IMG/VR virus record: IMGVR_UViG_3300045988_116781
Strand: one strand, 5' to 3'
Source of the DNA: a virus
Length of the DNA stretch: 58,428 nt
Shown: piece after piece, positions 5,907 to 49,232 of the stretch
Layout of the letters: every line of letters begins with the position of its first letter
Position numbering within the stretch: position 1 is the stretch's first letter
Made by a program: the position numbers and the translations under genes
The notes under the pieces: model-generated
The model's database searches: none
What the model saw: the letters and a program-made list of their open reading frames with translations, nothing else
What the model was told of the DNA's origin: nothing

Positions 5907-5937
5907 CAAAGATACTATTAAAGTACTTAATAAGTAC
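5907..5937 (-). promoter_or_regulatory. candidate promoter with palindromic operator upstream of the lysis cassette
   Basis: The minus strand reads GTACTTATTAAGTAC (5923-5937), then 8 nt, then the -7 box TATCTTTG (5907-5914). This is about 30 nt upstream of the ATG at 5877. Confidence 0.45.
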
Positions 5938-5955
5938 GCTATTGCGGCAAAAAAA

Positions 5956-26288: not shown

Positions 26289-26323
26289 ACTCCGGGTATT
26301 CTTTGATTGGTCATATTACAGCG

Positions 26324-26540: not shown

Positions 26541-26584
26541 GCCGACAAGATAAAAAACAGCAAATAAATTAGGAGGTAATCAAA

Positions 26585-26785: not shown

Positions 26786-26803
26786 CTCAAAAACGCAACT
26801 GAT

Positions 26804-27169: not shown

Positions 27170-27180
27170 GAATTAGAGTT

Positions 27181-27926: not shown

Positions 27927-27957
27927 TAACAAACAATTCAACGCAACCGATATTTTT

Positions 27958-29082: not shown

Positions 29083-29093
29083 AAATCGGGACT

Positions 29094-29941: not shown

Positions 29942-30007
29942 GACCAGTACCTGATAGAAAATCCGTACCTTTGTAGTAACATTCAACGCAATCAAATAGA
30001 TATAACC

Positions 30008-31074: not shown

Positions 31075-33563
31075 CCTACCACTTCAACGTCTATAAAGTA
31101 TCTCCAGCCCGATTTCTCAACCTTTGTGATGCGAAATCGGGTATTTCTTTGTATCAGCATTTCGTTCTCAGAAGAATATGCAGAACGTCCGTCAATATAG
31201 AGCATCTTTGTCCCTTTCGGGCAGTAAATGTTTATTATATTACCACCAAATCCTGTCCCTTTTGCTGCTCCACAACTCATAAATGCAGTATCTGTGATGC
31301 TTTTACCCACAAGGGCGTTCAGGCTGCTTTCGTCCAAAGATGCAAGTTGCAGGAATCCTGCTAATCCCTCATCATCAACTCCACGTTGTAGCCAAATATC
31401 CTTATCGTATGTCGATTTATTGATAAGGTTTGTCAGGCTGTCTATGTCTTTCGGTGCTAACGGGCTTTCATTGTCAAGAGGAACATTGCCTATACCCTTG
31501 AAGTTAGATTTTCCCCATGCACCGTCATATCCTCTCAAAGGCCTGTTTACATATCCGCTTCCTGATGTATATCTCCAAGCCGCATCCTGTTCTTCTTTTG
31601 AAGCAGTATTGTATATCTCATCCGCTTTGTCCTTGAACTTGTTTACAGAATTGCTGGATGTCTTACACCATATAGCCTTGTCCTTTCTGTCTTTGGTATA
31701 AGCACTCTCATCAAAGGTTGTTGATTGACCTTTGCCGAACAGTCTTTTGGCGTTCCGTTGAGCCGCAGCTTTGTCGAGTTGCTCACGCTTCTTTTTGATG
31801 TCGAGTATCGTTTGCTGTGCGGCTGCTTTGTCCTTGCTGGATATAGCATCCTGCAATTTTGCCACAAGGTCAAGATACGGTTGCGACTTCGTTTTGAAGC
31901 TGCTTATGTTCTTGAACTCATTGCTGATGTTCTCCCAATCGAGAGCGTCCGACACTTTTTCGAGCTGCTTCTTGTAGGCATTCTGCGCCACCTCCCATGT
32001 GGAGTATTTCTGATGTTTCTGTACCCAGTCTATCTCGAACGACAGTTTGGACTTCTGTTTCTCCAAAGAGAGACCAGCCCAACTGTCCAGCTTCTTCTGC
32101 ACGGCTTCATTAACAGCTTTTGCCTCCGACATAGAGAACTGACGTGCAACCTGCATCGGATTGTCGAGATATGAGTAGGAGAGGATTTCCTTGCCGACCG
32201 CTTTCAGCCTGCGAGCCTCTTTGAGTATCGTATCGAGATTGCCGCCGTTGAGTGCTTTCTGCAATGCGGATGTATCAACGTCCGAGATACCGCCCATGTA
32301 GGACAGAATGCTCTGGCCGTACTTGCGTGTAGCCCTGCGCTCGTTCCATGCCTTGCGTATGGCCGCTTCCTGTTCGGGTGTCCTGCTGGCGTGCCGGATC
32401 TCTGCGTTGCGTAAAGTCCAACGCCGCTTGATGTCCTGTATCTGTCCGGGCGTTCTTGCCGCATGGCGTTCTTTGGCTGTTTCCAAAGCCGTAGGGGGAT
32501 TTATAATCCTGTCAACGGTCTTCTTATTGTTCTTGATGAAATAAGGCAGCGTACCACGTTCTTTTGCCTTTTCTATGCGTTCTGCGTTGTCTATTGCCCA
32601 TGACTTGAAGTTACCCGGCATGTCGGCAATGACTTTCCCCGAAATGTCGTAATCCTCTCCATTCAGTTTCGCCTGCTGCATGGCCATCATATCCTTTTCT
32701 GATAACAAGACAGGAACTACGTAGCAGAAGCATTGAGGATGCCATCCGTCAAAGACAAAATTTTTAGGATATCTTCCGGCAAGTGTGTCACAGATATCGG
32801 TCACAGGGTGGTTGCGTGACAGGTGTATTTCCTGACCTATCACGAAGTCCATCTGCTGCCAGCGTGTATTGTCAGCCCTGCGGTATGCGATGTTTGTTTC
32901 TGTTCGGGCGATACGCATGGCGTTCTTTGCCGATGAGCGGTAAACGCCCTGTCCCGGGTGATAAGCCTTTGCCGCCTTTGACAGCTTCAGGTTGCCTTTC
33001 TCATCTCGTATTCTGCGGAACAGCTTATCGGGATTATTCAGGTATTGCCGGACGTATCTCGATATTTGGGATGCGCTGTCGCCGTCTCCAATGGCCACGG
33101 TCATGGCAAGTTCCATTTCGGAGCGTAGCTGCTTCACGGGCTGCCAAATACGGTCTGACAGGTTAAGTCCGGCTTCGCTCCGGCTGATGAAAGCCTCCAT
33201 AGCCTCCGTGTTTCGCTCAAACCATCCTGCGAAACGCTTGTCTGAAAGTATCTCCTTACCGAAACAGGATGCGGCAAGCTCATCGCAAGCGGTGTTAGCC
33301 TCGTCCCATTCAAGAGTGATGTCGTTCTTGATTGCGGCATATACTGCGGAATGTAGGTTTCTAAGCCTGTCCGAGACTTTCTTTGCGATTTTCTTCTGTT
33401 CTGAATAGCGAAACACCTCTCCATCGTCCAAATGCGGTACAGAGGACGTTAAGGCAAGAATATCGTTTACCGCTACGGCAAACAATTTCCTTACCTGTTC
33501 CGCATACCTCTCTGTACGGTTGAGAAGTGCGAGATATTCCTTTTTCCCTGTTTCAGTAACCAT
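31065..33563 (-). CDS. minor head protein (SPP1 gp7 / Mu F-like) fused to a C-terminal ADP-ribosyltransferase domain
   Basis: 832 aa. The central IARTETNIAYRRADN...HPQCFCY is typical of gp7/MuF head morphogenesis proteins. The C-terminal roughly 190 aa carry R-S-E ART motifs: YVNRPLR, FMSCG and ENEMLIQ. Confidence 0.75.
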   Translation of the reverse strand: MVTETGKKEYLALLNRTERYAEQVRKLFAVAVNDILALTSSVPHLDDGEVFRYSEQKKIAKKVSDRLRNLHSAVYAAIKNDITLEWDEANTACDELAASCFGKEILSDKRFAGWFERNTEAMEAFISRSEAGLNLSDRIWQPVKQLRSEMELAMTVAIGDGDSASQISRYVRQYLNNPDKLFRRIRDEKGNLKLSKAAKAYHPGQGVYRSSAKNAMRIARTETNIAYRRADNTRWQQMDFVIGQEIHLSRNHPVTDICDTLAGRYPKNFVFDGWHPQCFCYVVPVLLSEKDMMAMQQAKLNGEDYDISGKVIADMPGNFKSWAIDNAERIEKAKERGTLPYFIKNNKKTVDRIINPPTALETAKERHAARTPGQIQDIKRRWTLRNAEIRHASRTPEQEAAIRKAWNERRATRKYGQSILSYMGGISDVDTSALQKALNGGNLDTILKEARRLKAVGKEILSYSYLDNPMQVARQFSMSEAKAVNEAVQKKLDSWAGLSLEKQKSKLSFEIDWVQKHQKYSTWEVAQNAYKKQLEKVSDALDWENISNEFKNISSFKTKSQPYLDLVAKLQDAISSKDKAAAQQTILDIKKKREQLDKAAAQRNAKRLFGKGQSTTFDESAYTKDRKDKAIWCKTSSNSVNKFKDKADEIYNTASKEEQDAAWRYTSGSGYVNRPLRGYDGAWGKSNFKGIGNVPLDNESPLAPKDIDSLTNLINKSTYDKDIWLQRGVDDEGLAGFLQLASLDESSLNALVGKSITDTAFMSCGAAKGTGFGGNIINIYCPKGTKMLYIDGRSAYSSENEMLIQRNTRFRITKVEKSGWRYFIDVEVVGQI

Positions 33564-33570
33564 AAATCAG

Positions 33571-35016
33571 TTATTCAGCCGTTGGTAATACTTCTTCCTC
33601 CGTTCTGTTCCCGAATAAATCTGCATTCGCTTTCTGCCGTTCCTCTTTCTCCTTTTCAATCCGCTGCAACTCCTTTGCATGGTCTTTGACAAGCGGATTG
33701 AGTTCAACTGCGCCCTCTTGGCTGATAAGCCCAGCATCGTACATCTTGACGATATTGGATATGCATTCCGTGATGTCCTCCCCGAACGGCTCTTGAAACT
33801 CGTGCCCGATCTGCAGTTTGGAGCATTCCTCTTTCAGGGAAATGTCAAGCACGTTTCCGATAATGGCGGTTATCAGACTGGCCGTCCTGTCAAGCAGTTC
33901 ATCGTGTATCTCCTTATGCTTCGATGCCTTGATGTCTGCAAGCAGCATGACCGTACGCAACGCCTTTGCCGAAAGCTGCGAGATGCTTTTCATCGTGTCG
34001 AGACTTATTTTCGGCGTGAATGTCTTGGAATAGATTTGGTCTTGCAGCCATTCGATTTCGTCTTTCTTCGATTGCGGCGCATTATCCCATGTGAGGTACT
34101 TTGCAGCCTTATCCACTCCGTCCTGTCCTTTCGTGATGAGCAGTTTGTTGGCATCTTTCTTTTCAGGCAGATTTTTTACCACTTCTGCATCCATGATGGC
34201 GATAGGGTCGGCGAAATAGTCGTTTGTGTCCGCAGAGCGGCTGGCGATGTACTCCTCACGGTGTATCAGAGGCTCAACGCCTGCCCATTCCTTTTTCTGC
34301 TGGAACAGGATGATGGGGATTTTCCCCACGAGGTTTTCTTCTTCCTCCACCTCCCAGCCGAGACCGCCACGGACACACTTGTAGATGGTGTTCGGGGTAT
34401 AGATGTCGAAATGATACTCCACCTTGTCGTTTGCCTTGACGTAGTATCCCCAGCCTATGGAAATGATGTTCTCGAACTGGTCCCAGCGCACATAGATGTC
34501 ATCTCCCTTGCTCTTTGCGAGAACACGTATCTGTACGTCAGGGTTGCCGTCATTATCCCTGAATACACGGAACAGCATTGCACTCTCCGTTTCCGCTCCG
34601 GCTATGCGCTTGCATTGACGTATCTTGCTGTTGAAATGTGTATTCTTGATAACGTCCATGTACTTGTTGAAAGCCCTGTCCGTATTCTCTGATAGTTGAG
34701 ACCATTTCACGGGACGACCATACAGGAACACGAGCGAGATTTCATTGATATACACAGGGTACGGTACAGGCAGTTTCCATACAGGCTCTTTCCGTAGGAA
34801 CTTGCCGTTCTTGTCCGTGATGATTTTGTCCTCACGCTTCATTATCTGATGCGAGAACGTGTCATAGTCCTTGATAGCGTCAAGGATAAGCTCGCTCCTG
34901 TTGCTCATCGAGTCTATGACCGCACCGATGTCTTTGGCTTGCAACAGCTTCTCGAACTCCTGATTACGTCCCACGAGCTGATTGACGTAATTCCGAAATA
35001 CATTAAAGTAATTCAT
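33571..35016 (-). CDS. portal protein
   Basis: 481 aa. It lies between TerL and the gp7-like minor head protein. Confidence 0.7.
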   Translation of the reverse strand: MNYFNVFRNYVNQLVGRNQEFEKLLQAKDIGAVIDSMSNRSELILDAIKDYDTFSHQIMKREDKIITDKNGKFLRKEPVWKLPVPYPVYINEISLVFLYGRPVKWSQLSENTDRAFNKYMDVIKNTHFNSKIRQCKRIAGAETESAMLFRVFRDNDGNPDVQIRVLAKSKGDDIYVRWDQFENIISIGWGYYVKANDKVEYHFDIYTPNTIYKCVRGGLGWEVEEEENLVGKIPIILFQQKKEWAGVEPLIHREEYIASRSADTNDYFADPIAIMDAEVVKNLPEKKDANKLLITKGQDGVDKAAKYLTWDNAPQSKKDEIEWLQDQIYSKTFTPKISLDTMKSISQLSAKALRTVMLLADIKASKHKEIHDELLDRTASLITAIIGNVLDISLKEECSKLQIGHEFQEPFGEDITECISNIVKMYDAGLISQEGAVELNPLVKDHAKELQRIEKEKEERQKANADLFGNRTEEEVLPTAE

Positions 35017-35037: not shown

Positions 35038-36510
35038 TTACAATCCAAATGTACCTTTGCCGAGTGCGTCATAGTCTATGTCGTCATCATCGTTCAAAAG
35101 GTCGTTTATAGCATATCCGAGTATATCTACATATTCGTCATGGGGCTGGGTCGGGAAACCGCATACCTCTTTCAGGAACTCCTCATTCCAGCTGCCCTCC
35201 ACGATGTACACCCGGCCGCACTCTATGCGAGGGGAAACCACACGCAGCCTGACCTCCTTACTGTCGTCAGGTGTGGGCGTTTCCTTGACATTGAGCGTGG
35301 ATATTTCCTTTAGCATCTGAACAACGCTGATACCGTTCGCCTTTGGCTCGATATGCAGCTTGCTCTCTCCTGTTGCCCCGTGCGATGCCATATACTCCGG
35401 AAGAAAGCGCAACAGATCCGGCATCTCTTTCCACACTTTTTGCGCATCCACGAGATACACGCTGTTCCTTATCCTGCAAGCAGCCAAAATGCCGCTCGGG
35501 TCGTTGTCTGTCCTCTGCTTCTTGTTGTATGCGGTATCGAGATAGAAGTGTATCGTTTCCCGAAACCGCAAAGCCATGAAGTCAGAGTACGATATCCTGC
35601 GAAACCACTCATCCTTGACAATGTTACCGCCGTCCACTATCGGGGACTGTTCGTATTGTCCTGCATAGCCGAGACTGCCGAGGTCTATTTTCGCTTCTTC
35701 CAGGACAGACCTGTTGAGCCGGACAGGGTCGAGAAGCCCGTCCACGTATTTGTCCCGAAGTTCAACGGGCTTTACCATGTCCGACAGTTCGGCTGGCAGA
35801 CACACGTGCCGTATCTTTTCGCCCTTGCGCTTCAACAGGTAGCCCGTAACGTCTTCCTCATGCAGACGCTGCATGACGGTAATCATCGGGGTGTTCTCCT
35901 TGTTTACCTTTCGTGAGGACAGCGTTTTCACATGCTCGTTTGCCTGTAATCTTAACGGCTCGCTGTCCGCCTGTTTCGGGTTCTGCGGGTCATCGTTGAT
36001 TATCACGTGGGCATGGAAGCCTGTAATGGTCGCACCTGTTGATGTGGCGTAACGGAAGCCTCCCTGCGTGTTCTCGTAGTGCTGCTTTCCCTGTTTATCA
36101 CGTCTCAATACGATTTCAGGAAACAGTTTGCGGAACTTGTCGCTCTGAATGATGTCCTTTGATTTCGTTGCGTGCTCTATTGACAGACCACCCGAATACG
36201 AGTTTGTAATAGCCCTCAATGTGGGGTCATTAATCCATAACCATACCGGGAACATGATTGTGACGATTGTCGATTTTGTTGTTCCCGGAGGAATATTGAT
36301 GATAAGGTCATAAGGTTTCGGCTCTCGGTTTATGATTGATACCGAGAGCTTCTGCAACTCATCGCACAGATAGGGTATGTGCCAGTTGTAAATGGGCTTT
36401 TCCGATATGATAACGTCCCAAAACATCTTCACGAAGTAGAAAAAACTCTTCCGGCACTCATCTGCTACGACTTGTATTCCCAACGCCGTATAATCAATGT
36501 TCCGTATCAT
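35038..36510 (-). CDS. terL: terminase large subunit
   Basis: 490 aa with Walker A-like PPGTTKST and Walker B-like VIINDDP. The C-terminal nuclease region is in a typical position. Confidence 0.85.
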   Translation of the reverse strand: MIRNIDYTALGIQVVADECRKSFFYFVKMFWDVIISEKPIYNWHIPYLCDELQKLSVSIINREPKPYDLIINIPPGTTKSTIVTIMFPVWLWINDPTLRAITNSYSGGLSIEHATKSKDIIQSDKFRKLFPEIVLRRDKQGKQHYENTQGGFRYATSTGATITGFHAHVIINDDPQNPKQADSEPLRLQANEHVKTLSSRKVNKENTPMITVMQRLHEEDVTGYLLKRKGEKIRHVCLPAELSDMVKPVELRDKYVDGLLDPVRLNRSVLEEAKIDLGSLGYAGQYEQSPIVDGGNIVKDEWFRRISYSDFMALRFRETIHFYLDTAYNKKQRTDNDPSGILAACRIRNSVYLVDAQKVWKEMPDLLRFLPEYMASHGATGESKLHIEPKANGISVVQMLKEISTLNVKETPTPDDSKEVRLRVVSPRIECGRVYIVEGSWNEEFLKEVCGFPTQPHDEYVDILGYAINDLLNDDDDIDYDALGKGTFGL

Positions 36511-36925
36511 TCAGCACCTGTTCCCCGATAGTTAGCAGGACTTTCCTCTGCTCATCCGTGAGCTTGCTCAAATCAATTTCGGCGGCTTTCAGCAACGGTT
36601 CTCCGTTAGCCCCCGTATGCTCCAACCGCTCACTATATCCACGGTCTTTCATCTGCGTTTTGGCGTAGAAGATTATCATCGTGGTGTCGCCCTCTTTCAT
36701 CTTCTTCAGGATAAGGGCTTCCGCAAAGTCCTTCTGCAGCTCCTTGATATCCTCCACCTTTTCGGCAAAGTCGCTGTCCTCCTTAAGCCACTTGTAGAAA
36801 GTGAAACGGGATATGCCAGCCGCCTTGCAGGCAGAAGCAACGATGCCGGAACTCTTGTTCAGGGCATCAAGCACAACCTCCTTGTCTTTGGCTATGCGTT
36901 CCTGTATTGTCTCATTTGTTGCCAC
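36494..36925 (-). CDS. terS: terminase small subunit
   Basis: 143 aa with an HTH (ACKAAGISRFTFYKWLKED). It overlaps the TerL start. Confidence 0.7.
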   Translation of the reverse strand: MATNETIQERIAKDKEVVLDALNKSSGIVASACKAAGISRFTFYKWLKEDSDFAEKVEDIKELQKDFAEALILKKMKEGDTTMIIFYAKTQMKDRGYSERLEHTGANGEPLLKAAEIDLSKLTDEQRKVLLTIGEQVLNDTEH

Positions 36926-38009
36926 GTCTTTCCTCTAATTGCTGGTTTTCTTTCATTATGTCGCCGAGTATTACCCGGTATGTCCTTTTTTTCGGGTCAC
37001 CTGCCACAAGCATTTGGTAAAGCCTCTTGCATGTTGCGGATGATGTGCGCTCATCTACACGGGCATACAGTTTCTTCGCTTCCTTGTAACCCGGGTACAT
37101 GTCGGGGTGCTGGCTCGCTTTCTTCATTTCCTCTTTGAGCACGATACGGTAATCCTTATCCTTGTCGAGGTCGAACTTCTGATCCTGCTTCGTGCTTCGG
37201 AACATATCAGTGTCCCAGTACAGCATCACGAGGTCGGCGTTCGGCTCTCTCCTGATGACACGTTCGTACAGGTCGGGATAGAACTCCAGCACCTTTGGCA
37301 AAGTCTTGATAGTATCGATTGAAAAGAACTGCGAAATCCTTAGCTTATTCAACGCTACGCCCACTTTGTATAGGTAGATGTAGGTCATGGGGATTTGAAG
37401 CCCGTACAGTTTGATGTAAAGCCATACATCGCTGTCTTTCCAATCATACATGGGATAGATGAACGGGCTTTTGTCCGTCTTTAACGATATGGCGGTTCTT
37501 CGCTGTACGCTTTCAGCCATACGTAGACCCACCATCTGCGGTACTTTCTTGAAAATCTTTTCCCCAAAATACTGATAGGTCATTCCCATACGGAAATCCT
37601 TGTGGTTGCGTATGGCGAACTTCGGCATGGGACGTACCCAAACGCTTTCCTTGCCCGGCTCCCAGCAGATAAAACTTTCATCGTTCGCCAACTTGTTGCA
37701 GCAGTTGTAGTGCTTTATGGGCAGACAGAACCAGTAGAACCTTGCTCCGAGAGAGAGAAAACGAGACCTCCAGTCCTTGACTATCTCCTCCACGTCAGGG
37801 TATATCGCTTCCTCATCGAAGAATATCACAATCAGACGGGAGAACGGTATGCCGTATTTCTGCATCGTCTTGACAACGATGTCAGCCATACAGATACTGT
37901 CCTTGCCGCCTGAAAAGCTCAACGCAACGAGCTTGTTGTTATTGAAGGCTTCGAGAACCCTGCGCTCCGCCGCCTCCACGACCGAAATATTCAACGTCTT
38001 TTGGAACAT
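36912..38009 (-). CDS. PAPS reductase-like PP-loop ATP pyrophosphatase (IbrA-like)
   Basis: 365 aa with the PP-loop LSFSGGKDS and a long C-terminal extension, as in IbrA-type proteins. Confidence 0.65.
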   Translation of the reverse strand: MFQKTLNISVVEAAERRVLEAFNNNKLVALSFSGGKDSICMADIVVKTMQKYGIPFSRLIVIFFDEEAIYPDVEEIVKDWRSRFLSLGARFYWFCLPIKHYNCCNKLANDESFICWEPGKESVWVRPMPKFAIRNHKDFRMGMTYQYFGEKIFKKVPQMVGLRMAESVQRRTAISLKTDKSPFIYPMYDWKDSDVWLYIKLYGLQIPMTYIYLYKVGVALNKLRISQFFSIDTIKTLPKVLEFYPDLYERVIRREPNADLVMLYWDTDMFRSTKQDQKFDLDKDKDYRIVLKEEMKKASQHPDMYPGYKEAKKLYARVDERTSSATCKRLYQMLVAGDPKKRTYRVILGDIMKENQQLEERRGNK

Positions 38010-38012: not shown

Positions 38013-38543
38013 CTATCCACGTTTGATGATTGTCGCCTTGCTGAATGTCTGATGCCGCTGTGTTACGAGCTTCAGGAATGTTTCCCGGTCTATTTTTGAA
38101 AGACGGAAGATTTCCTCACGGCTCATGCCCAGCTTCTTCGATATTTCGTCCACCGAAAGCCCCTCATCGAGAAGTTTCTTGACGATGTTCTCCATAGGCT
38201 CAAGCAGGTGCGTACCCCTTGCACGGTTGAATGTCACAGTTCCGGCCATGTCGTCCGTTGCGTTGTCATGCGCAACAATCACGACCGGGATTTTACCGCC
38301 GAGCAATGTCTTCAACGGCTCACGCCCTGACACCATCCAACGGTGGAAACCGTCTATGATAGTGTAGTCGGGACGTATCACGATAGGGAAACAGAAACCG
38401 TTATTGAGAATACTTTCCGTAAGCAGTTTCAGGTTCTTTTCAAGCACCTTGTTAGGGTTGTAGTCATTCGGTTTGACCAACTCACGGTCTATGAACTGCA
38501 AGTTCCGCAGCGGGGCGAAAAGGTCTTTTTGTTGCTTGCTCAT
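38013..38543 (-). CDS. ParB-like nuclease domain protein (IbrB-like)
   Basis: The start MSKQQKD overlaps the upstream stop (ATGA). The protein has the ParB/Srx-type motif IIDGFHRW and a C-terminal HTH-like region (VDEISKKLGMSREEIFRL). Confidence 0.6.
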   Translation of the reverse strand: MSKQQKDLFAPLRNLQFIDRELVKPNDYNPNKVLEKNLKLLTESILNNGFCFPIVIRPDYTIIDGFHRWMVSGREPLKTLLGGKIPVVIVAHDNATDDMAGTVTFNRARGTHLLEPMENIVKKLLDEGLSVDEISKKLGMSREEIFRLSKIDRETFLKLVTQRHQTFSKATIIKRG

Positions 38544-39121
38544 AACGTAATCTCCTTTCCGCAATGAGGACAAACCATAGTGCGTGCTGGCTGCATGCCG
38601 CTGTCGATGTCCTCAAATTCATCTGTCTGTTCCTCCTGTTTCTCCTGCGGTATGCTCTCCACGGACTTCTTCTGTGCTGGCTGCGTAAAGTCCACGCCCA
38701 TATTGTCAGTGGATACCTCGTTGATGATTGCTTCCAAGTAGTCATCCGTAAAGCCGATGATACCTGTCTCCCCAATCTCACGGATGATATCCTCCACCTT
38801 GCCGAAATTGATGTAGGACAGGGATTGGATTTTGTTGTCCTCCAAAACGAGCTTCATTTTCTGCTTGTCGGACAGACCATGCATGACAACCACGTCCGCA
38901 TCCGTGCGGCCGAGCTTTTCGAGTGCGAGCTTCTTACCGTGTCCGCAGAGTATCTGCATCTTCTCATCCACGATGATAGGATAATACTGCCCGTATGTTT
39001 CCATACTTTGAGCGATAGCCTTTACCTGTTCCTCCGGATGGATGTTCGGATTGTTGGGGAACTCTTTTAATTCCGTAACCTTTACGGTCTTTCTTTCCTG
39101 TGTTACTTTTGATTTTGACAT
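38540..39121 (-). CDS. ParB-like nuclease domain protein with C-terminal zinc-ribbon-like tail
   Basis: 193 aa with NPNIHPEEQVKAIAQSMETYGQYYPIIVDE..ILCGHGKKLA and a C-terminal CPHCGKE. Confidence 0.6.
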   Translation of the reverse strand: MSKSKVTQERKTVKVTELKEFPNNPNIHPEEQVKAIAQSMETYGQYYPIIVDEKMQILCGHGKKLALEKLGRTDADVVVMHGLSDKQKMKLVLEDNKIQSLSYINFGKVEDIIREIGETGIIGFTDDYLEAIINEVSTDNMGVDFTQPAQKKSVESIPQEKQEEQTDEFEDIDSGMQPARTMVCPHCGKEITL

Positions 39122-39122: not shown

Positions 39123-39917
39123 TCATTTAGCGTTTAGAAATTGTTTTGCTGATTCAATGTATTGAGCCGCTTCCTCCACGATTTGAGGTGCAATCCCATA
39201 CACCTCCTGCCAACCGTTCTGTACAGAGCCGCACCATTGGCGTGCAGCCCATACACCCGTGCCAACCGTGAAGCCGTTTTTCCAATCGTAGATAGGCGGC
39301 ATGTTGCGCCCCATGAAGTAGTGTATCACGGCCAGTACCTCCTCATGCTTCCAATTGGCGATAGGGGACAGGCGTGTTACCCCGTTCCGGTCGGTGTAGC
39401 AGTTCTGACCCTTACCGCCCGTATAGTTGCCGTCCTGCGTGCGCCTGCCGAGACAGATAACCTCCAAATGCTTCTCCTTGAAGAACCAAGCCTGTGCCCG
39501 GTGCTGTATGATGTGAAACCATTGTGCCGCTTTCTTGCTGTCGGTCGGGAAAAGCATATCCTGATGCTTTGCGAGCCATTGCAGGTCAAGTTTGGCGTTG
39601 TCCCATACTGCAAGACCTTTCGGGCTGTTCTCTTTAATCCAAGCCAAGAATTGGGGGTATTCGAGTTTTGAGGCTATGCCGATAACGCAGTCTGTAATGC
39701 CAGCCTTTTCACAGACGTATTGCAGGGCAAGGCTGTCCTTTCCTCCGCTCCAAGCGTATCCGGCTCGTTTGCCTGCCGTCTGCTTCCTGATGTCGGCTAC
39801 AGCATGATCCACGAGAGCCTGTGCCTCTTGCAGGGACACGAGACTTTCTATCTCGTTCCAAGCCTTGACGAAATCGTCATTGCTTGAAGTCTGTTTCTTT
39901 CCTATTATCTGTTTCAT
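39123..39917 (-). CDS. PAPS reductase-like PP-loop ATP pyrophosphatase
   Basis: 264 aa with the PP-loop YAWSGGKDS. Confidence 0.65.
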   Translation of the reverse strand: MKQIIGKKQTSSNDDFVKAWNEIESLVSLQEAQALVDHAVADIRKQTAGKRAGYAWSGGKDSLALQYVCEKAGITDCVIGIASKLEYPQFLAWIKENSPKGLAVWDNAKLDLQWLAKHQDMLFPTDSKKAAQWFHIIQHRAQAWFFKEKHLEVICLGRRTQDGNYTGGKGQNCYTDRNGVTRLSPIANWKHEEVLAVIHYFMGRNMPPIYDWKNGFTVGTGVWAARQWCGSVQNGWQEVYGIAPQIVEEAAQYIESAKQFLNAK

Positions 39918-39923
39918 ATCCTG

Positions 39924-40526
39924 TCAGTTGAAATTGTACGCTATGTTCACGCCGATAGTCTCCATGCCGCCGTCATATTTCAGCTGAAACCAAAGTTCAG
40001 GCGTGAGTTTGAAGCGGACGTTAGCTATCACTCCGGGCATTGCCCTCATGGAATATCCCACGTTGAACACAAGCCACCTGTAAGTATAACCACCCACGAC
40101 CTGCAATCGGTCGCCGTCACAGAAGCGGTCGCCGTTGAAAAGGTTGTCCCAAGTGGCATCCACCATAAAGCCCAAAGGCAGCTTTACCGTTCCCGATAAA
40201 GTCTGCCTGTATTTGTTGGTTTTCCAGTCATAGATGTTCCGGCTCAATATGTAGAAGCGGTCGGCAATATTGAAGTTCAGCCATATTGCCGGAGAGAACG
40301 CCTGTGTATTGAAGTTGTACTGCGCAACGCCTGTCACGTTAAACCATTTCGCCACGTCCATCCTGTAACCTACAAACGGGTTGAATGTGGCAGAGCCTCC
40401 GTCATAGGGCTGGCTCAGCGAGAGCCAAACCCTATACTTTGTCGGTTGTGTGATACCGTCATATACCTGTGCCTTTGTGGTCGCCATTACCAGCAGAGCC
40501 GCTATGAGTAGTAGAAATCGTTTCAT
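39924..40526 (-). CDS. small outer-membrane beta-barrel protein candidate
   Basis: 200 aa. It has the signal peptide MKRFLLLIAALLVMATTKAQ, alternating aromatic/polar strand patterns, and an aromatic C-terminus (NIAYNFN). Confidence 0.5.
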   Translation of the reverse strand: MKRFLLLIAALLVMATTKAQVYDGITQPTKYRVWLSLSQPYDGGSATFNPFVGYRMDVAKWFNVTGVAQYNFNTQAFSPAIWLNFNIADRFYILSRNIYDWKTNKYRQTLSGTVKLPLGFMVDATWDNLFNGDRFCDGDRLQVVGGYTYRWLVFNVGYSMRAMPGVIANVRFKLTPELWFQLKYDGGMETIGVNIAYNFN

Positions 40527-40541
40527 CGTTCCAATTTTGAA

Positions 40542-42011
40542 TTAGTATAAATTGAGGTTTCTGTTCACAGTAGGTTTGTCTTTCATCACTCTCGCCATGA
40601 TGCCCGATGTGCAGATAGTGAGAAGCGAGCCTGTGAGGATGAGCGGAATGTTGCCGTGCAGGTTACCGTATGCGAAAATCGGAAGACCTACAATCAGGCT
40701 GGCCATGATGCCGTAATACAGTCCACGTTCTGACATCTTCCTGCCGTTGATGGCAAAGATTGTCGGGAGCATTACGGAGCTTCTCAAAGTACCGTAGAAC
40801 AGGAACAGGCAGGTTATGGTTATTCCCGGTATGTTTGCTACCACGATAGCCAAGACTGTAACGGCGACCATAGCGATACGGGCGATGTCCACCGAACTGA
40901 GTATGCGCTTTCCTATGCGTATTGCTCCGAGACTGCCTTTGCCGAACTTGTCTGCAATCCGCATTGATACATCATGTCCTGCGATTGAGGACACGGCGCA
41001 CATGATACTGTCCACGGTCGAGACGAGACCTGACAGGATAAGCAGGAAAAACAGGTAGAGAAACCATTTCGGGGTAAAGGCGATAACAGCCCCTACATTG
41101 ACAAGCTGCGTGTCGGCAATATCCAAACCTGCCCCCGATGCGAAAAAGCCGAATATGGACAGGGAAACGGGCACTACGGCGAATATCAGAGCCGCAAGCA
41201 GCATCGTATTCTTCACTTTGTCATGCTTTACACAGAATACACGTTGCCAAAACATCTGGTCGCCGAATGTTCCTGAAAGCAATCCTATCGTGGTGGGTAT
41301 TCCGAAAGAGAGCATCACGGCTATGCCGTTCTTATCGAACAGGTTGTCGAAATCGCCGCTTATGCCGCCCAAACCATTGACAAGCGTATCAAATCCGGCG
41401 TTCGATGTCATGATAGGCAGTCCCATGAGAAGCACAACCACGATGAAGCCCATTTTCACGAAGTCTGTCGTGATGCTCCCTCTGATACCGTTCGTAAGCG
41501 AGTAGAGCAGCGGTATTACTGCGAGCAATACGGTCGTCCAAAAGAAAGGTAGTCCCGTAATCTTGTGGAAGATTGCCGCTCCGGCCAAAAGCTGTACCGC
41601 CATTGAACACACCTGAAGCCCGAAACTCTCTATCAGGAACATGTTGTGTGCCCTCTTGCTGTACTTCTCCCGTATGTAGTCCGAAAACGTCCATCCGTTA
41701 GGTCTGAGGTTGCGCATCTTCTTTGCAAAGAATGCGAACAGCACCAGCGTAAGCACGTTCGGAACTACGAACCAAAATACACCAGCTAATCCCTGCGTAT
41801 AGGCTTTCTCCGCCGCCGTGAACATGGACGGTGCCCATACCCACGTTGCCGCCATTGAAAAGGCTGTCAAAATCCACGATGCCGAACGGTCGGCCACCAA
41901 AAACTCCGATTTGGTCTGTTCCCTCTTCCGGAGCAATGCGATGATGCCTACCATTGCAAGAAAATATCCGATTATCAGCATCAATCCGTCTGTCTTGCTT
42001 AAAATTTCCAT
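40542..42011 (-). CDS. sodium:solute symporter (SSS) family transporter
   Basis: 489 aa and polytopic (about 12-13 hydrophobic helices). The N-terminal region FLVADRSASWILTAFSMAATWVWAPSMF is typical of the SSS family. Confidence 0.7.
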   Translation of the reverse strand: MEILSKTDGLMLIIGYFLAMVGIIALLRKREQTKSEFLVADRSASWILTAFSMAATWVWAPSMFTAAEKAYTQGLAGVFWFVVPNVLTLVLFAFFAKKMRNLRPNGWTFSDYIREKYSKRAHNMFLIESFGLQVCSMAVQLLAGAAIFHKITGLPFFWTTVLLAVIPLLYSLTNGIRGSITTDFVKMGFIVVVLLMGLPIMTSNAGFDTLVNGLGGISGDFDNLFDKNGIAVMLSFGIPTTIGLLSGTFGDQMFWQRVFCVKHDKVKNTMLLAALIFAVVPVSLSIFGFFASGAGLDIADTQLVNVGAVIAFTPKWFLYLFFLLILSGLVSTVDSIMCAVSSIAGHDVSMRIADKFGKGSLGAIRIGKRILSSVDIARIAMVAVTVLAIVVANIPGITITCLFLFYGTLRSSVMLPTIFAINGRKMSERGLYYGIMASLIVGLPIFAYGNLHGNIPLILTGSLLTICTSGIMARVMKDKPTVNRNLNLY

Positions 42012-42046
42012 GTCGTTTTTTGAAATGTTAGATTTGTTAGTCCGTG

Positions 42047-42081
42047 CAAATATACTAATAAAGCGTACTTGTTAGGTACGC
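42047..42081 (-). promoter_or_regulatory. candidate promoter plus palindrome upstream of the transporter/packaging operon
   Basis: The minus strand reads GCGTACCTAACAAGTACGC (42063-42081), then 8 nt, then the -7 box TATATTTG (42047-42054). This is about 35 nt upstream of the ATG at 42011. Confidence 0.45.
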
Positions 42082-42477: not shown

Positions 42478-42903
42478 TCAGAACGGCAAATCGTCATCAT
42501 CTGCACCTTGCGAGCTGCCGCCTCCCGAATAGGTGTTCTGCTGGGGTTGTTGCTGGCCGTTGTCCTGCCTGCGGTCGAGCATCTGCATGATGTCCCCGTG
42601 AATTTCGGTCACATACCGCTTTATGCCGTTCCGGTCGTCATAGCTGCGTGTCCTTATCTTTCCCTCGATATACACGGACGAGCCTTTATGCAGGTACTGT
42701 CCGGCAATCTCTGCGAGTTTTCCCCACAGTACGATGTTGTGCCATTCGGTGCGGTCGGGTACGGTAGTGCCTCCCTGTGTGGTGTAGCCCTTTTCGGTTG
42801 TCGCCACCGAGAACTGCGTGACCTTTGTCCCGGTTTGCAGGGTGTCCACTTTCGGCTCTTGCCCCACAAACCCGATAATCGTTACCTTGTTGATTGAAGC
42901 CAT
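42478..42903 (-). CDS. ssb: single-stranded DNA-binding protein
   Basis: 141 aa with an OB-fold N-terminus (INKVTIIGFVGQEPKV...WHNIVLWGKLAE), a Gly/Gln-rich linker and an acidic tip (DDDLPF). Confidence 0.92.
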   Translation of the reverse strand: MASINKVTIIGFVGQEPKVDTLQTGTKVTQFSVATTEKGYTTQGGTTVPDRTEWHNIVLWGKLAEIAGQYLHKGSSVYIEGKIRTRSYDDRNGIKRYVTEIHGDIMQMLDRRQDNGQQQPQQNTYSGGGSSQGADDDDLPF

Positions 42904-45557: not shown

Positions 45558-48068
45558 TTATGCTCCTATTAAGTCAAACAATGTCGGTGCGGTAACCTCC
45601 TGCTCAATCTCTTTCAGGTAGGAAATACCGTCTCTCCAATAGTCATAGTTCAGTTCGGTAGACAGACCCATGCGCCCCATTTTCACGGCGCAGTACGGCA
45701 CCGTCTGAATACCTCCGAACGGGTCAAAAACGACTTCTCCCTTGTTGGAATACCTCTCGATGAGCCTTTCCACTATGTCAAGCTGCAACGGGCAGATATG
45801 GTTCTGCTTTTTCTTCTGCGACTGCTTCGTGTTCAGGGTGCGCATCCGTACCACATCGTCCCAAATCCAATCCTTTTTGCTTACCGGATCTACCGCCATG
45901 AATGTCTTCGGCAGCTTCCCGTAAGCCTCCAGCTCCTCCGCAAAGGCGATATGCTCCTCATAGTTGTAGACATGCTCGCTCTCGTACTTCCTGAACAGGG
46001 AACGTATCTTGTCTATGCCCAAGCCTTTCATGTCCTCGAAACTCAAAAGGGAGTTGCCCGAAGACTTCCAGCTTGCGTGAGCGTCAATCTGCCAGCGTGC
46101 CAGCGAATAATCCTCCTTGCTTTTCTCCACACGGCAATCCGCATAAGCCTTTGAGGTATCGGTAGGCAGCTTGCGGAACAGAAGCACGTATTCAGGACAC
46201 CCTACGCCCATTTTCGAGCCGTCCTTGCGCATTTCACCATAGCCCAAGCGGTACGTCTGGTTATTCTCCCTTACCACGTCTGTATCGACCGTTATGCGTC
46301 CCATATACCGGAAGCCATGCTTCATGTAGTGGAACACGGCCATGTCCGAAAACGGGTCTATGGTAGGCATTCCGTCCCCGGTTGCGTTACCGAACAGCAC
46401 CCGGTCTTTCACATGCACGCACAGAAGTCTGCCCGGCTGTAAAATCCGCATCAGTTCGGGAGTGAGATAGTCCATCTGCTCAAAGAACTTCTCATTATCC
46501 TGATTATGCCCGAAGTCGTTGTATGTCGGCGTGTACTCGTAGTGGTTGGAGAACGGTATGCTGGTCACAATAAGACCGACCGAGTTTTCCAGCATGTTCT
46601 GACACTCCAGCACGTTGTCGTTGTTTATCGCTCTCCACATCTTGCCCGACTGTTCCTCACGCTTGGAGAACATGTAGCGCATCATCTTTTCCTCTGCCTG
46701 TAATCCGAACAGCCCGTTTTCCCGTATGATGTTCGCCATATTCTCGACCATGTTGTTATGCTGCGCCCACTTCTGCATGAATGACTTGAAAATCTCCTGT
46801 TCGCTCTCAGCATACACCAAATACAGCTCAACCGGGTATTTCTGCATAAAGCGGTGTATGCGTGCCACTGCCTGAAACTTGTCGTTGAAACGGTAGTCGA
46901 TGAACATTATAGCCTTGTGGCAATGGTATTGGAAATTCAAGCCCTCTCCGAGCATTTCAGGCTTTGCGGCAAGGTATTTCAGTTTACCGTCCTTGAAGTC
47001 CTGAATAATGCTGTCCGCTTCCTCATCGTCCTGCGAACCGTAGACCGCCTTGCATCCGGGAATGGCTTTGCACAGCTCGACACGTTCCGCTTCCAAGTCG
47101 TGCCACAAAAGGAAATGGTCATCCTTATTCTCCGGGCGATTTATTATCTCCACCACACGGGCGATTTTCACAGGCATACAGTCCCTGCGCTCCCGTGCCG
47201 CATCCTGCAAGCTCAAGGCTGCTGAACGGAACATCATAGCCTGTCCGTCCCTGTCCTGCATCGGCATTGAATTGTCCACCTCTACGATTTCCTCATGCAC
47301 GTGCAGTTCAGGAAGCTCATACCCGATATCGGGGTAGCCCAAGTCTGACGGCTTCGTCAGGAACAAAGCCCATGTGCTTACCCATAGCCAAAACTCCTTT
47401 TCCTTGTGCGGATAGAGCGTTAGGTTGTTCGCCTTTGTGCTGTCTCTTTGGAAAAACCTCGTAAGAGCCTGTCCCGTGTCCATTACGCCGAGATAACCTG
47501 CATAATGTATCAACTCCTTGTATCGGTTGGGAGACGGCGTAGCGGTCGCCACAAAGCGGTACGGCACATTGCTGAACAACGGCAGGAACTCCTGATAGGT
47601 CTTTGTTCCGAAGCCACGCAGCACGCTCGCTTCATCCAAAGATGTTGCGGTGAAGTATGAAGGATCTATACGTACCCCGTCCTCACCGTCACGTACACGC
47701 TCGTAGTTGGTTATCATTATTTCGGTAGGGCATTCCATTACCTCCTGCATGGTGCGAACATAGGTCACTTCCATGCCGAGATGTTCCTTTGCCTGATGCA
47801 GGAACTCAATCACTACACGCTTGGGGCAAACAATCAATCCTTTGCCGCCCTCATGCTTCAGGATTATACGGAGGATTTCAAGCTGGGTTACGGTCTTCTG
47901 CATACCGAAGCTGCTGAATACAGCCCTGCAACCGCCCTTAACAGCCCAGCGAACGGTATCTTTGACGTGAGGATATAGATTTGGTGTCAGCTCATCCGTA
48001 CTGACCTCGAAGCCCGTGTTATGGCTTATCGCCATCTTGTCTCTGAGAAATGCAATATATGGTTTCAT
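45558..48068 (-). CDS. SF2 (SNF2/DEAD-like) helicase fused to a beta-class N6A/N4C DNA methyltransferase
   Basis: 836 aa. Helicase motifs: FGMQKT, SLDEAS, ATATPSPN and QAVARIHR. Methyltransferase motif IV-like TSIPF is followed by C-terminal motif I VFDPFGGIQT. Confidence 0.7.
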   Translation of the reverse strand: MKPYIAFLRDKMAISHNTGFEVSTDELTPNLYPHVKDTVRWAVKGGCRAVFSSFGMQKTVTQLEILRIILKHEGGKGLIVCPKRVVIEFLHQAKEHLGMEVTYVRTMQEVMECPTEIMITNYERVRDGEDGVRIDPSYFTATSLDEASVLRGFGTKTYQEFLPLFSNVPYRFVATATPSPNRYKELIHYAGYLGVMDTGQALTRFFQRDSTKANNLTLYPHKEKEFWLWVSTWALFLTKPSDLGYPDIGYELPELHVHEEIVEVDNSMPMQDRDGQAMMFRSAALSLQDAARERRDCMPVKIARVVEIINRPENKDDHFLLWHDLEAERVELCKAIPGCKAVYGSQDDEEADSIIQDFKDGKLKYLAAKPEMLGEGLNFQYHCHKAIMFIDYRFNDKFQAVARIHRFMQKYPVELYLVYAESEQEIFKSFMQKWAQHNNMVENMANIIRENGLFGLQAEEKMMRYMFSKREEQSGKMWRAINNDNVLECQNMLENSVGLIVTSIPFSNHYEYTPTYNDFGHNQDNEKFFEQMDYLTPELMRILQPGRLLCVHVKDRVLFGNATGDGMPTIDPFSDMAVFHYMKHGFRYMGRITVDTDVVRENNQTYRLGYGEMRKDGSKMGVGCPEYVLLFRKLPTDTSKAYADCRVEKSKEDYSLARWQIDAHASWKSSGNSLLSFEDMKGLGIDKIRSLFRKYESEHVYNYEEHIAFAEELEAYGKLPKTFMAVDPVSKKDWIWDDVVRMRTLNTKQSQKKKQNHICPLQLDIVERLIERYSNKGEVVFDPFGGIQTVPYCAVKMGRMGLSTELNYDYWRDGISYLKEIEQEVTAPTLFDLIGA

Positions 48069-48080: not shown

Positions 48081-49232
48081 TTAGAAATACACGTTTGTCA
48101 ATGCTCTGCCGTTGCTCTCGATTTGATACAATCCCTTTTGCGGTTCTGTCAGCTTCAGGTCTTCAACACGACCGAAGCGGTGGTAGTTGTTGCACAAGTC
48201 CACCACCCATGATTCCTGCTTGTCCTTGTGTGGTCTTATTGCCCGACCTATCATCTGATAGTAAAGCGAAAGGCTCATTGTGGGACGTGCAAGAACGACC
48301 GTATCAAGTTCGGGATAGTCAAATCCTGTAGTGAGTACCCCGACATTCGCTACGACTTTTATCTGTCCAGACTTGAACTTTTCAAGTATCTGCTCACGCT
48401 CTGATTTAGGGGTGGACCCTGAAACAATGGCACAACATCCGAATGTCTTTTCAAGCCGTTCTGCTTCTTTCAGGAAACGTGTAAATACAAGTATTCCCCG
48501 GCGGTTCACTTTAAGAAGCCGCTCGATGATGTTGCACAGGTGCTGGTAGAAATTCACACGCTTGTATTCGCTCAGTACCGATTTTTCGGAATAGTCCGCA
48601 CCTGTGGTGTTGTACCGCAGCTTCTTCATGTCAAGCGGACTGAGTTGGAAATACCGCATCGGCGACAGGTAGCCCCGTTCCGAAAGTTCCCCAATCTGTA
48701 CATGGTACAGCACGCTTGAAAATACGCATGGTCTCGTGCGTGTGATGAATTTCAGCATAGAGCCGAAGTCAAGGCTCGAATACAGCCTGTAAGGCGTGGC
48801 GGTTAATCCCAAAACCTTGCATTTTATGGCTGTCAGGAAGTCTTTGTACATGCCCTCTTTCGGGTTCACCAAATGGCATTCGTCTATGATTACATACCTG
48901 AATGCCCTGAACAGTTGCGGATTGCTCTTTACGCTGCCTATCGTGGCGAATGTGATCCGGCGTATTTCCTTGCTGTTAAATGAAGCCGAATACACAGAAC
49001 AGTCCCAAACGCCGTATGATTGCAGCTTTGCATAATTCTGTTCCAATATCTCCTTGCTTGGCTGGAATATGAGTGTAGGAGCGTCCAGCCGTGCGGCAAT
49101 GTCCGCTATCACAAGGCTCTTGCCGCTTCCTGTCGGCAGGACTATGATTGCGTTCTTGTTGCTGCTCCTGTCCTGGAAGAACGCCGTTGCAGCGTCGCTT
49201 GCTTTTTTCTGATAGTCTCTTAACTGATACAT
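48081..49232 (-). CDS. DEAD/DEAH-box (SF2) helicase
   Basis: 383 aa with LPTGSGKS (Walker A), IIDECH (motif II) and GFDYPELD...QMIGRAIR (motifs V/VI). Confidence 0.8.
   Translation of the reverse strand: MYQLRDYQKKASDAATAFFQDRSSNKNAIIVLPTGSGKSLVIADIAARLDAPTLIFQPSKEILEQNYAKLQSYGVWDCSVYSASFNSKEIRRITFATIGSVKSNPQLFRAFRYVIIDECHLVNPKEGMYKDFLTAIKCKVLGLTATPYRLYSSLDFGSMLKFITRTRPCVFSSVLYHVQIGELSERGYLSPMRYFQLSPLDMKKLRYNTTGADYSEKSVLSEYKRVNFYQHLCNIIERLLKVNRRGILVFTRFLKEAERLEKTFGCCAIVSGSTPKSEREQILEKFKSGQIKVVANVGVLTTGFDYPELDTVVLARPTMSLSLYYQMIGRAIRPHKDKQESWVVDLCNNYHRFGRVEDLKLTEPQKGLYQIESNGRALTNVYF

Follow-up and report, generated by a model that had tools for sequence, protein, structure and literature searches.

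The IMG/VR virus record IMGVR_UViG_3300045988_116781, a 58,428-nucleotide stretch of DNA that was analysed at its full length (hereafter, the window), contains directly upstream of its terminase genes a cassette in which genes for a sodium:solute symporter (SSS)-family transporter, here called SSF, and for an outer-membrane beta-barrel are followed by four genes for proteins related to PAPS reductases and ParB. We propose that the barrel and SSF would constitute a phage-encoded two-step uptake route, namely an outer-membrane channel and an ion-coupled inner-membrane symporter, and that this route would be functionally coupled to the products of the next four genes, two pairs that each consist of a PP-loop ATP pyrophosphatase and a ParB-like protein (putatively a DNA binder or NTPase) and resemble IbrA and IbrB. 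In the proposed sequence of events, a phage regulator bound to a palindrome would activate the SSF and lysis promoters jointly at a late stage of the lytic cycle. A small polar solute would then be imported from the gut lumen by channel and symporter, and the PP-loop enzymes, targeted by their ParB-like partners, would use ATP to adenylate either a position on the phage DNA or the solute and then join both. The genome would be chemically marked in this way just before packaging by the terminase encoded immediately downstream.

The components of this model merit different degrees of confidence. A functional coupling of the uptake route to the cassette appears probable, and on balance we lean towards the explanation as a whole, which combines the uptake route, a late operon, enzyme coupling and DNA marking. 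DNA as the target of the cassette is a realistic option that falls somewhat short of probable. More doubtful is the fully specified version, in which gut temperate phages of Bacteroidales and Clostridia would covalently attach an imported exogenous molecule to their own DNA before packaging by TilS-/DndC-like chemistry, with PP-loop adenylation guided by ParB-like proteins, amounting to environment-dependent DNA hypermodification. We infer the direction of transport, the late timing and the use of the imported solute by the enzymes; the DNA target and the identity of the solute are speculative.

As had been stated in the preliminary description of this DNA, an SSS transporter and a signal peptide-bearing barrel protein are encoded head-to-tail on the minus strand. 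The SSF gene (40542..42011, 489 aa) is the first of the cassette and is separated by 15 nt (40527-40541) from the barrel gene (39924..40526, 200 aa), which lies only 6 nt (39918-39923) from the gene for the PP-loop protein PAPS264 (39123..39917, 264 aa). The genes for ParB193 (38540..39121, 193 aa), ParB186 (38013..38573, 186 aa, or 176 aa if translated from the ATG at 38543) and the second PP-loop protein, PAPS365 (36912..38009, 365 aa), follow on the same strand. The end of the PAPS365 gene is overlapped by the start of the small terminase gene terS (36494..36925; Pfam Sf6_terminase, 1.9e-5), and the large terminase gene terL (35038..36510; Pfam Terminase_6C, 9.6e-6) and an SPP1-type portal gene (33571..35016; Pfam PF05133, 2.9e-32) continue the same apparent transcription unit, again on the minus strand.

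Residues 37-436 of SSF match Pfam PF00474 with an E value of 4.8e-24 (85.4 bits, cutoff 22.8), and the family profile detects DUR3 (1e-37), CHT1 (8e-25) and vSGLT (1.5e-19) in the PDB. The NCBIfam superfamily model TIGR00813 scores 106.5 bits, under its cutoff of 184, and SSF is not an equivalog of PanF (53 bits, cutoff 328) or PutP (35 bits, cutoff 515) in NCBIfam. At least 1200 homologues were found, and SSF matches phrog_20720 at 6e-125, a family labelled 'unknown function' in PHROGs. Judged by its sequence, SSF is an SSS-family LeuT-fold inner-membrane symporter with a DUR3-like signature that falls outside any characterised subfamily.

For a closer view of the binding site, the urea-binding and proton-coupling residues of AtDUR3 (W93, W95, T98, Y117, Q124, N305, D312, Y315, W338 and E402; PMC11840088) were mapped onto the SSF family alignment. 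The W-x-W dyad of transmembrane segment (TM) 1 (W93 and W95, corresponding to W57 and W59 of SSF), the TM6 aspartate (D312; D251) and the TM7 proline (P342; P281) are kept, and T98 is conservatively changed to S62. The six other site residues are replaced by residues that are invariant in the phage family: Y117 by F81, Q124 by T88, N305 by L244, Y315 by F254, W338 by F277 and E402 by I336. Urea is therefore an unlikely substrate and was rejected. The pocket of SSF is more aromatic and hydrophobic than that of DUR3 and contains Asp residues; an amine substrate, which the aromatic pocket suggested, was not adopted because the lumen of the barrel is net basic. Genomic context was uninformative on the substrate: the sole non-phage relative of SSF, from Bdellovibrionales (33% identity), lies among trypsin, peroxidase and photolyase genes, and no clue came from the genes that precede the cassette in the Clostridia-type loci described below. 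A tblastn search with SSF retrieved only four unannotated faecal contigs, including MT836198.

The barrel protein begins with MKRFLLLIAALLVMATTKAQ, a typical signal peptide with a predicted signal-peptidase site between KA and Q. A19 is nearly invariant and Q20 invariant in the family, and the C-termini read ...AYNFN, ...ALQFN or ...AYHF. A signal peptidase I site followed by Gln (the 'Q-rule') marks exported proteins of Bacteroidota, and the barrel combines such a signal peptide and Gln with a C-terminal aromatic beta-signal, as is characteristic of outer-membrane proteins exported by these bacteria. An AlphaFold2 model based on 39 homologues (pLDDT 88, pTM 0.78) predicts the signal helix and then 12 strands. 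Foldseek comparison of this model with the PDB ranks KdgM first (4fqe; E 9.4e-6, TM 0.58/0.66) and also returns VhGalP (8xua) and NanC (2wjr), the TM-scores to porins spanning 0.5-0.66; comparison with BFVD returned only generic barrels with low TM-scores. The earlier designation 'beta-barrel-like' is thus borne out by the predicted fold. Sequence-based searches gave no match in Pfam or NCBIfam at E <=0.01, none in PHROGs, and none for the family profile against PDB sequences at E <=10. The homologue search found 223 proteins, and the family is phage-restricted, with only 40 representatives among 1.84e9 proteins. The numbers of SSF and barrel homologues, and the position of the barrel gene right behind SSF in 72 of 74 Bacteroidales-type loci (see below), show that neither gene is a chance ORF.

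One face of the predicted strands is hydrophobic, and the other is polar and carries nearly all invariant residues, with 11 K/R versus 5 D/E, the faces being assigned by secondary-structure parity rather than from coordinates. Such an arrangement is better suited to a specific channel than to a structural barrel, and the modelled protein is a candidate for a substrate-specific channel of the outer membrane. Both the SSF pocket and the barrel lumen would be satisfied by a small molecule that is zwitterionic or carries a carboxylate, for example an amino-acid-like compound, although this is a guess.

The two uptake proteins are also found physically joined. In a Prevotella metagenome-assembled genome (L020, 10001-12307), SSF, a helical linker of ~90 aa, a signal peptide and the barrel form one open reading frame (ORF) of 768 aa. 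An assembly error was rejected as the origin of this fusion: a second, independent fused protein (P0352, 762 aa) is 95% identical, and its frame stays open through a diverged linker in which the substitutions are concentrated. As the C-terminus of SSS proteins is cytoplasmic, the internal signal sequence might serve as an extra transmembrane segment and be cleaved, freeing the barrel into the periplasm. In five loci of one Bacteroidales sublineage (L017, L018, L019, L021 and L023), extra ORFs of ~89 and ~103 aa lie between the transporter and barrel genes.

To examine how widely the gene order is conserved, 18 one-genome-per-species loci (17 of them Bacteroidales-type) and the best 80 of 371 IMG/VR matches were scanned for the Bacteroidales phages, and loci were counted if they came from IMG/VR and extended at least 5 kb downstream of SSF, giving 74 Bacteroidales-type and 56 Clostridia-type loci. 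Among the Bacteroidales-type loci, the barrel gene directly follows SSF in 72, the complete order SSF-barrel-PAPS264-ParB193-ParB186-PAPS365-terS-terL-portal is present in 55 (with four more in which only the last gene or genes were unrecovered), and all four enzyme genes occur in ~62. The order is kept down to 54-57% identity in SSF and 37-39% in the barrel. The loci lacking enzyme genes are in-place deletion derivatives with a truncated barrel or SSF. The barrel is shortened to 175 aa and abuts terS in four of them (L042, L043, L049 and L051), is truncated to 147 aa in L097 and is fused to a PAPS365 fragment in L098; in L106, SSF is followed by a C-terminal PAPS365 fragment, and in L087 SSF itself is truncated to 409 aa next to terS. 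In none of the scanned loci was the SSF-barrel pair seen in an unrelated context. An occurrence of the pair in such contexts, apart from ParB and PAPS reductase-like genes, had been named beforehand as the observation that would speak against a functional link, and the few loci without these genes are the deletion derivatives just described.

A second group of phages carries the same enzymes and transporter with no barrel. On the faecal phage contig MT836198 (58% G+C), the stop codon of an SSF gene (41% identity) overlaps the start codon of a PAPS264 homologue, followed by a ParB gene whose product has the same C-terminal CxxC and by a PAPS365 homologue; a barrel gene is absent. This SSF, used as a query, yielded 169 IMG/VR matches. 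The Clostridia-type order SSF-PAPS264-ParB-PAPS365-ParB is found in 50 of the 56 counted loci, and a further five lack only PAPS264, with G+C contents ranging from 32% to 63%. Exact-sequence look-up of the barrel-less SSFs pointed to Flavonifractor plautii, Agathobaculum desmolans, Anaerotruncus colihominis, Eubacterium sp. and Lachnospiraceae, all of them monoderm Clostridia, with cluster sizes reaching 4443 members. The barrel is thus present in 72/74 loci of the diderm-associated type versus 0/56 of the monoderm-associated type, where the monoderm assignment rests on the names attached to five protein clusters. Together with the two fused proteins, this distribution argues for the two-membrane uptake route that the preliminary description had suggested.

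The cassette precedes at least four non-homologous terminase types: the SPP1/Terminase_6C type of the window, lambda GpA with a lambda-type portal, Terminase_5/AAA with Phage_portal_3, and Terminase_6N. A reciprocal scan starting from PAPS365 recovered SSF in nearly every locus having upstream DNA, and two loci at 70% G+C have the rearranged order ParB-PAPS365-ParB-SSF-terL. Since the linkage persists while host phylum, base composition, gene order and packaging machinery all change, a functional coupling is indicated, and the proposed connection of the transporter with the PAPS reductase-like and ParB genes is upheld by the order conserved in both phage groups as well as by the reciprocal scan. 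In a 34% G+C lineage (L226, 2784-6387), a CTP_transf_3 cytidylyltransferase gene comes directly before two tandem SSF paralogues, which are followed by ParB-PAPS365-ParB-terS-terL; this neighbour is possibly a hint that the imported compound becomes nucleotide-activated.

A different membrane protein occupies the transporter position in other phages. In the cultured Faecalibacterium phages FP_Taranis and Pioen, genes for a RinA-like activator, a 333-aa membrane protein, a ParB protein, a PP-loop protein annotated as IbrA and a ParB protein annotated as IbrB precede terS and terL. The membrane protein (FP_Taranis gp35, annotated 'transporter membrane protein'; L268, 4302-5303, and also present in L269-L273) has at least 866 homologues, and its distant relatives occur in a full cassette consisting of the membrane protein, PAPS263, ParB196, PAPS378, ParB174, terS and a GpA-type terL. 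No Pfam match was obtained for gp35, and hhalign with the SSF profile was not significant (probability 4.6%); homology with SSF is therefore claimed only at the fold level. The AlphaFold2 model of gp35 has a minimal 10-helix LeuT fold (pLDDT 89, pTM 0.87), with CHT1 as the best PDB match (TM 0.65), followed by DMT1, AdiC and BetP. On the strength of this predicted structure, every version of the cassette that has a membrane gene carries a LeuT-fold secondary transporter.

With regard to expression, a promoter-like element and a palindrome are present upstream of the transporter gene at 42047-42081, as originally noticed. The minus-strand -7 box TATATTTG (42054-42047) conforms to TAnnTTTG, the Bacteroides -7 promoter consensus, and is one of only four intergenic minus-strand boxes of this type in the 58-kb window. 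It lies 8 nt downstream of a perfect 19-bp palindrome, GCGTACCTAACAAGTACGC (42063-42081, minus strand), a candidate operator that might double as a hairpin downstream of the VRR_NUC gene. The SSF promoter has no -33 TTTG, the palindrome sitting at that position. Full copies of this palindrome family (RCGTACTTAWTAAGTACGY) are located at 5921-5939, 26348-26366, 26524-26542 and 42063-42081, with a partial copy at 57996-58014, that is, four full sites and one partial site versus none expected by chance. The copy at 5921-5939 belongs to the lysis-cassette promoter (5914..5939, minus strand), in which the 8-nt spacer TTTAATAG and then TATCTTTG (-7 box at 5914) follow the palindrome. The SSF and lysis promoters thus have identical geometry: a 19-bp palindrome, 8 nt and TAnnTTTG. 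At both the SSF/packaging and the lysis promoter, the palindrome replaces the -33 element, and a plus-strand -7 box in the divergent region (26.3-26.5 kb) has a copy on either side. The recurrent palindrome probably serves as the operator for a single phage regulator that works as a switch.

Related Bacteroidales phages have lineage-specific palindromes with a -7 box 40-56 nt ahead of the SSF start codon. The 5' leader (42012..42046, minus strand) contains CTAACA-AAT-CTAACA as a direct repeat (42040-42026), with an A-rich run preceding the start codon; upstream of SSF in relatives (L001-L099), TTACA-N4-5-TTACA followed by AAAAA occupies the equivalent place, and the conserved leader could be a translational or regulatory element. 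No terminator-like site was found on the minus strand in the scanned interval 49500-33000, which spans the region from the SSF start to the portal gene. In Firmicutes versions of the cassette, a RinA/DUF1492 late-activator gene lies directly upstream of the transporter gene. Because of the shared operator and geometry, the conserved promoter, the lack of a terminator-like site in that interval and the position of RinA/DUF1492, the uptake genes are read as the first genes of a late operon that is probably co-regulated with lysis. At the level of genomics, these observations agree with the original view that the pair belongs to a lytic operon running into terS and terL.

The four remaining cassette proteins belong to two superfamilies. 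PAPS264 matches Pfam PF01507 at 1.4e-4 and phrog_424 and contains the motifs WSGGKDS and LGRRxxDGN; no cysteine is conserved in its alignment. PAPS365, which is IbrA-like, matches PF01507 at 8.5e-9, phrog_2302 at 4e-73 and, weakly, BrxP (1e-8), and contains an invariant C95-x4-H100-x2-C103-x11-C115 cluster with no C-terminal Cys motif. The SGGKDS PP-loop motif is invariant in both families, and both proteins are, by their sequences, assigned to the PP-loop ATP pyrophosphatase superfamily. Genuine CysH proteins have a catalytic C-terminal cysteine in an ECGLH-type motif. Neither protein shows the hallmarks of a true PAPS reductase (CysH): the catalytic Cys motif was not found in them, and the NCBIfam CysH model reached 16.5 bits against a cutoff of 154. 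A precedent for PP-loop chemistry is provided by TilS, which adenylates a base carbonyl and adds an amine.

ParB193 has a ParB/Srx fold and a C-terminal CxxC knuckle, matches phrog_620 at 1.6e-39 and Noc at 7.7e-4, and resembles the ParB domain of phage methyltransferase fusions (phrog_498). ParB186 combines a ParB N-terminal domain with a helix-turn-helix (HTH) and the motif DGFHRW (Pfam PF02195, 5.6e-7; phrog_2159, 2.8e-60), and its match to Spo0J in the PDB (1vz0) reaches 5.7e-7. PADLOC reported only weak matches to BrxP and to methyltransferase-ParB proteins, and none for Dnd or Ssp; DndA/IscS, DndD/SspC and DndE/SspB are absent from the cassette.

DNA is favoured as the target because of the HTH and Spo0J match of ParB186, the likeness of ParB193 to methyltransferase fusions, the BrxP match and the precedents of DndC and SspD. 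These last two are PAPS reductase-family enzymes that act on DNA (PMC12707154), with ParB-superfamily partners in the cases of DndC with DndB and of SspD (PMC10853773, PMC12707154). In addition, PMC13551039 cites a report (Piel 2022) that Dnd is overcome by a phage PAPS reductase. The original suggestion that a substrate is imported for replication or DNA modification is in keeping with the conserved gene content, with DNA modification as the leading candidate process.

Several considerations weigh against the proposed model. Its claims on transport, timing and modification are drawn from sequence, predicted structure and gene neighbourhood, and the locus counts come from redundant metagenomic contigs and 'best 80' lists that are not phylogenetically independent. 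The substrate clues conflict, with an aromatic and hydrophobic SSF pocket containing Asp on one side and a net basic barrel lumen on the other. PDB sequence searches with both PP-loop and both ParB proteins found no informative relatives, so that the enzyme chemistry is a guess. Among the 74 Bacteroidales-type loci, about 6-8 have lost the enzymes but retain SSF, either alone or together with the barrel; such variants indicate that phages remain viable without the block between VRR_NUC and terS, which decays from within. Conversely, related enzyme sets exist without a transporter, and IbrA-like genes occur in many cultured phages. The cultured Riemerella phage vB_RanS_PJN03 (ON245412, L267), whose host belongs to the Bacteroidota, has the order ParB-ParB-PAPS365 (64% identity)-terS-terL with neither transporter nor barrel. 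The transporter is therefore not obligatory for the enzymes and looks like a supply module. Finally, ParB186 weakly matches the ADP-dependent serine kinase SerK (NCBIfam, 8.6e-4; PDB 5x0b, 0.036), and ParB/Srx-fold proteins can be small-molecule kinases.

Such a possible kinase activity makes small-molecule metabolism or anti-defence the main rival function, in which the imported solute would be phosphorylated or adenylylated into a cofactor-like, nucleotide-like or decoy molecule whose role would be to support late infection or to neutralise a host immune pathway. Besides the SerK match, it can draw on partial CysD-like matches in NCBIfam, on the inclusion of small-molecule adenylyltransferases such as CysD and eukaryotic FAD synthetase in the PAPS reductase superfamily, and on the lineage with CTP_transf_3 beside tandem SSFs, an arrangement that can be likened to import-activate-attach pathways such as licABCD. 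It also accounts for the transporter linkage as well as the DNA-marking model does. However, ParB186 has a clear HTH and is closer to Spo0J than to SerK, the likeness of ParB193 is to DNA-targeting ParB domains in methyltransferase fusions, and the position of the enzymes, always right before terS/terL and across unrelated packaging systems, suggests a role in DNA or packaging; we therefore regard a purely metabolic cassette as unlikely, though worth keeping in view. Less likely again is that the pair is a lysogenic-conversion moron, a nutrient-uptake fitness factor that stands beside the PAPS/ParB genes by shared ancestry only. The phage is temperate, with an integrase gene (1338-2483) and a 99% match to an isolate contig of Mediterranea massiliensis; its phage group carries another host-fitness factor, the ADP-ribosyltransferase Bxa (PMC11699363); a promoter lies directly upstream of the pair; and the deletion variants show the block to be dispensable. 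Nevertheless, the PP-loop/ParB linkage holds in two phyla, from 32% to 70% G+C, in loci with altered gene order and beside at least four terminase types that are unrelated, and Taranis-like phages have another LeuT-fold protein at this position. Moreover, no terminator-like site is predicted after the barrel gene, the next gene being 6 nt away, and the operator is common to the SSF and lysis promoters. The cassette linkage, this shared operator and the lack of any unrelated context for the pair among the scanned loci favour the initial judgement that it is not a moron.

Two further functions can be considered for the same genes. A sensing or regulatory module, in which the transporter imports a cue and IbrA/IbrB-like proteins turn it into control of phage or host expression, would agree with the annotation of the FP_Taranis homologues as IbrA/IbrB 'co-activators of prophage gene expression' and with the putative DNA binding of the ParB proteins suggested by the Spo0J match. 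To our knowledge, the sole experimental phenotype of Escherichia coli IbrAB is altered expression of prophage Eib genes, which also counts in its favour. We nonetheless consider this role very unlikely, given that the IbrAB annotation is non-mechanistic, that two ATP-consuming PP-loop enzymes fit regulators poorly, and that the cassette appears to be co-transcribed with late structural and lysis genes, past the lysis-lysogeny decision. It is more improbable still that the pair acts in superinfection exclusion or envelope remodelling, with membrane proteins that block competing phages and transport no solute. Phage inner- and outer-membrane proteins often act in exclusion, and the barrel family is restricted to phages, but features typical of SSS/LeuT proteins, among them the W-x-W dyad and the TM6 Asp, are retained in SSF, and the conserved residues of the modelled barrel point to the lumen rather than to surface loops. 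Exclusion would also leave the linkage to cytoplasmic enzymes and the probable late timing unexplained.

The DNA of the window recurs, at 99% protein identity, in the isolate Mediterranea massiliensis 118_WCHN (89.9-kb scaffold), and the window is a PhiBxa-like temperate phage of Bacteroidaceae, a gut prophage; PhiBxa and its ADP-ribosyltransferase Bxa, a host-fitness factor, have been described previously (PMC11699363). Megablast of the region against cultured and GenBank phages gave no match. Nearly all genes of the window are on the minus strand. Apart from the tyrosine integrase already mentioned, recognisable products include a GH108 endolysin within the lysis cassette (4636-5145), the tape-measure protein (16210-20865), the major capsid protein (23945-25051), SSB (42478-42903) and RecT (54070-55026), and a tRNA-Ser(GCU) gene lies within the structural region (21626-21711, minus strand). 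A MuF-ADP-ribosyltransferase fusion (31065-33563, minus strand), whose best PHROG match is named 'Bxa', is adjoined by a small convergent ORF (30760-31074, plus strand) and an ADP-ribosylglycohydrolase gene (30008-30763, plus strand), in agreement with the published Bxa/Bsi/BAH toxin-immunity layout. The plus-strand block at 26000-31000, home to the toxin-immunity genes and to several ORFs that match no family, has a lower G+C content (0.42-0.44) and GC and AT skews opposite to those of the remaining genome. At 45558-48068 (minus strand), an 836-aa fusion of SNF2-like helicase domains with an N6/N4 DNA methyltransferase domain adjoins a DEAD/ResIII helicase (48081-49232) and represents a second potential DNA-modification function in the same phage.

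Pairs of PAPS reductase-like and ParB-like genes beside terminase genes are among the commonest unexplained features of phage genomes and are routinely mislabelled as auxiliary genes of sulfur metabolism. Here, such enzymes are tied to a dedicated importer across hundreds of gut phage contigs and, in Gram-negative hosts, also to a channel. This tie implies that the enzyme reaction probably consumes a metabolite from outside the cell late in infection. If the product is indeed a DNA mark, the resistance of the phage to host defences would hinge on the chemistry of the gut lumen. Culturable carriers are available in the form of FP_Taranis and of prophages in Mediterranea massiliensis, Flavonifractor plautii, Agathobaculum desmolans and Anaerotruncus colihominis, and PJN03 offers a useful natural control that is free of transporter and barrel.

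Full-text literature searches found no published description of a phage cassette combining a symporter with PAPS reductase- and ParB-like genes, consistent with the preliminary description, which knew of no described system of this composition; a literature search for IbrA/IbrB returned blood-retinal-barrier papers only. Its individual parts nevertheless have recognisable relatives. DUR3 and CHT1 (SSS, TC 2.A.21) give the best profile matches to SSF and share with it the TM1 W-x-W, the TM6 Asp and the TM7 Pro, whereas SSF is ~200 residues shorter than DUR3, has no C-terminal domain and differs at six site residues. Points of likeness between the barrel and KdgM or NanC are the monomeric fold, predicted to have 12 strands in ~180 residues, the conserved lumen with its net basic charge and the pairing with an inner-membrane transporter, NanC itself working alongside an inner-membrane sialic-acid transporter; unlike these porins, to which it has no sequence similarity, the barrel family is tiny and phage-restricted.

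As regards its enzymes, the cassette resembles the IbrA/IbrB pairs, which are widespread beside terminase genes in phages and prophages. PAPS365 with ParB186 and PAPS264 with ParB193 form such pairs, the location upstream of terS is common to them, and homologues in FP_Taranis and Streptococcus phages carry the IbrA/IbrB annotation. IbrA carries a C-terminal DUF3440 domain; PAPS365 shares ~29% identity with annotated IbrA over 70% of the length and has no DUF3440 Pfam match at E <=0.01. The present cassette differs in having two pairs and a dedicated LeuT-fold transporter, plus a porin in diderm hosts. DndB/DndC, SspD and BrxP of type 4 BREX likewise have a PAPS reductase-family PP-loop enzyme and a ParB-superfamily partner on DNA. 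In contrast to Dnd and Ssp, the cassette has no DndA, DndD or DndE, PAPS264 has no conserved cysteine, and a transporter is unprecedented in those systems. Hutinet et al. are said to have described, in 2019, phage clusters for 7-deazaguanine DNA modification that include precursor transporters. The concept of a phage-encoded importer feeding DNA modification is the same, whereas the transporter families, the enzymes (DpdA/TGT and Que genes being absent here) and the chemistry are different. We know of no outer-membrane component in the 7-deazaguanine clusters. What is new in the present case is the joining of IbrAB-like phage modules to a dedicated one- or two-membrane import route, and the chemistry behind it stands a substantial chance of being wholly new as well.

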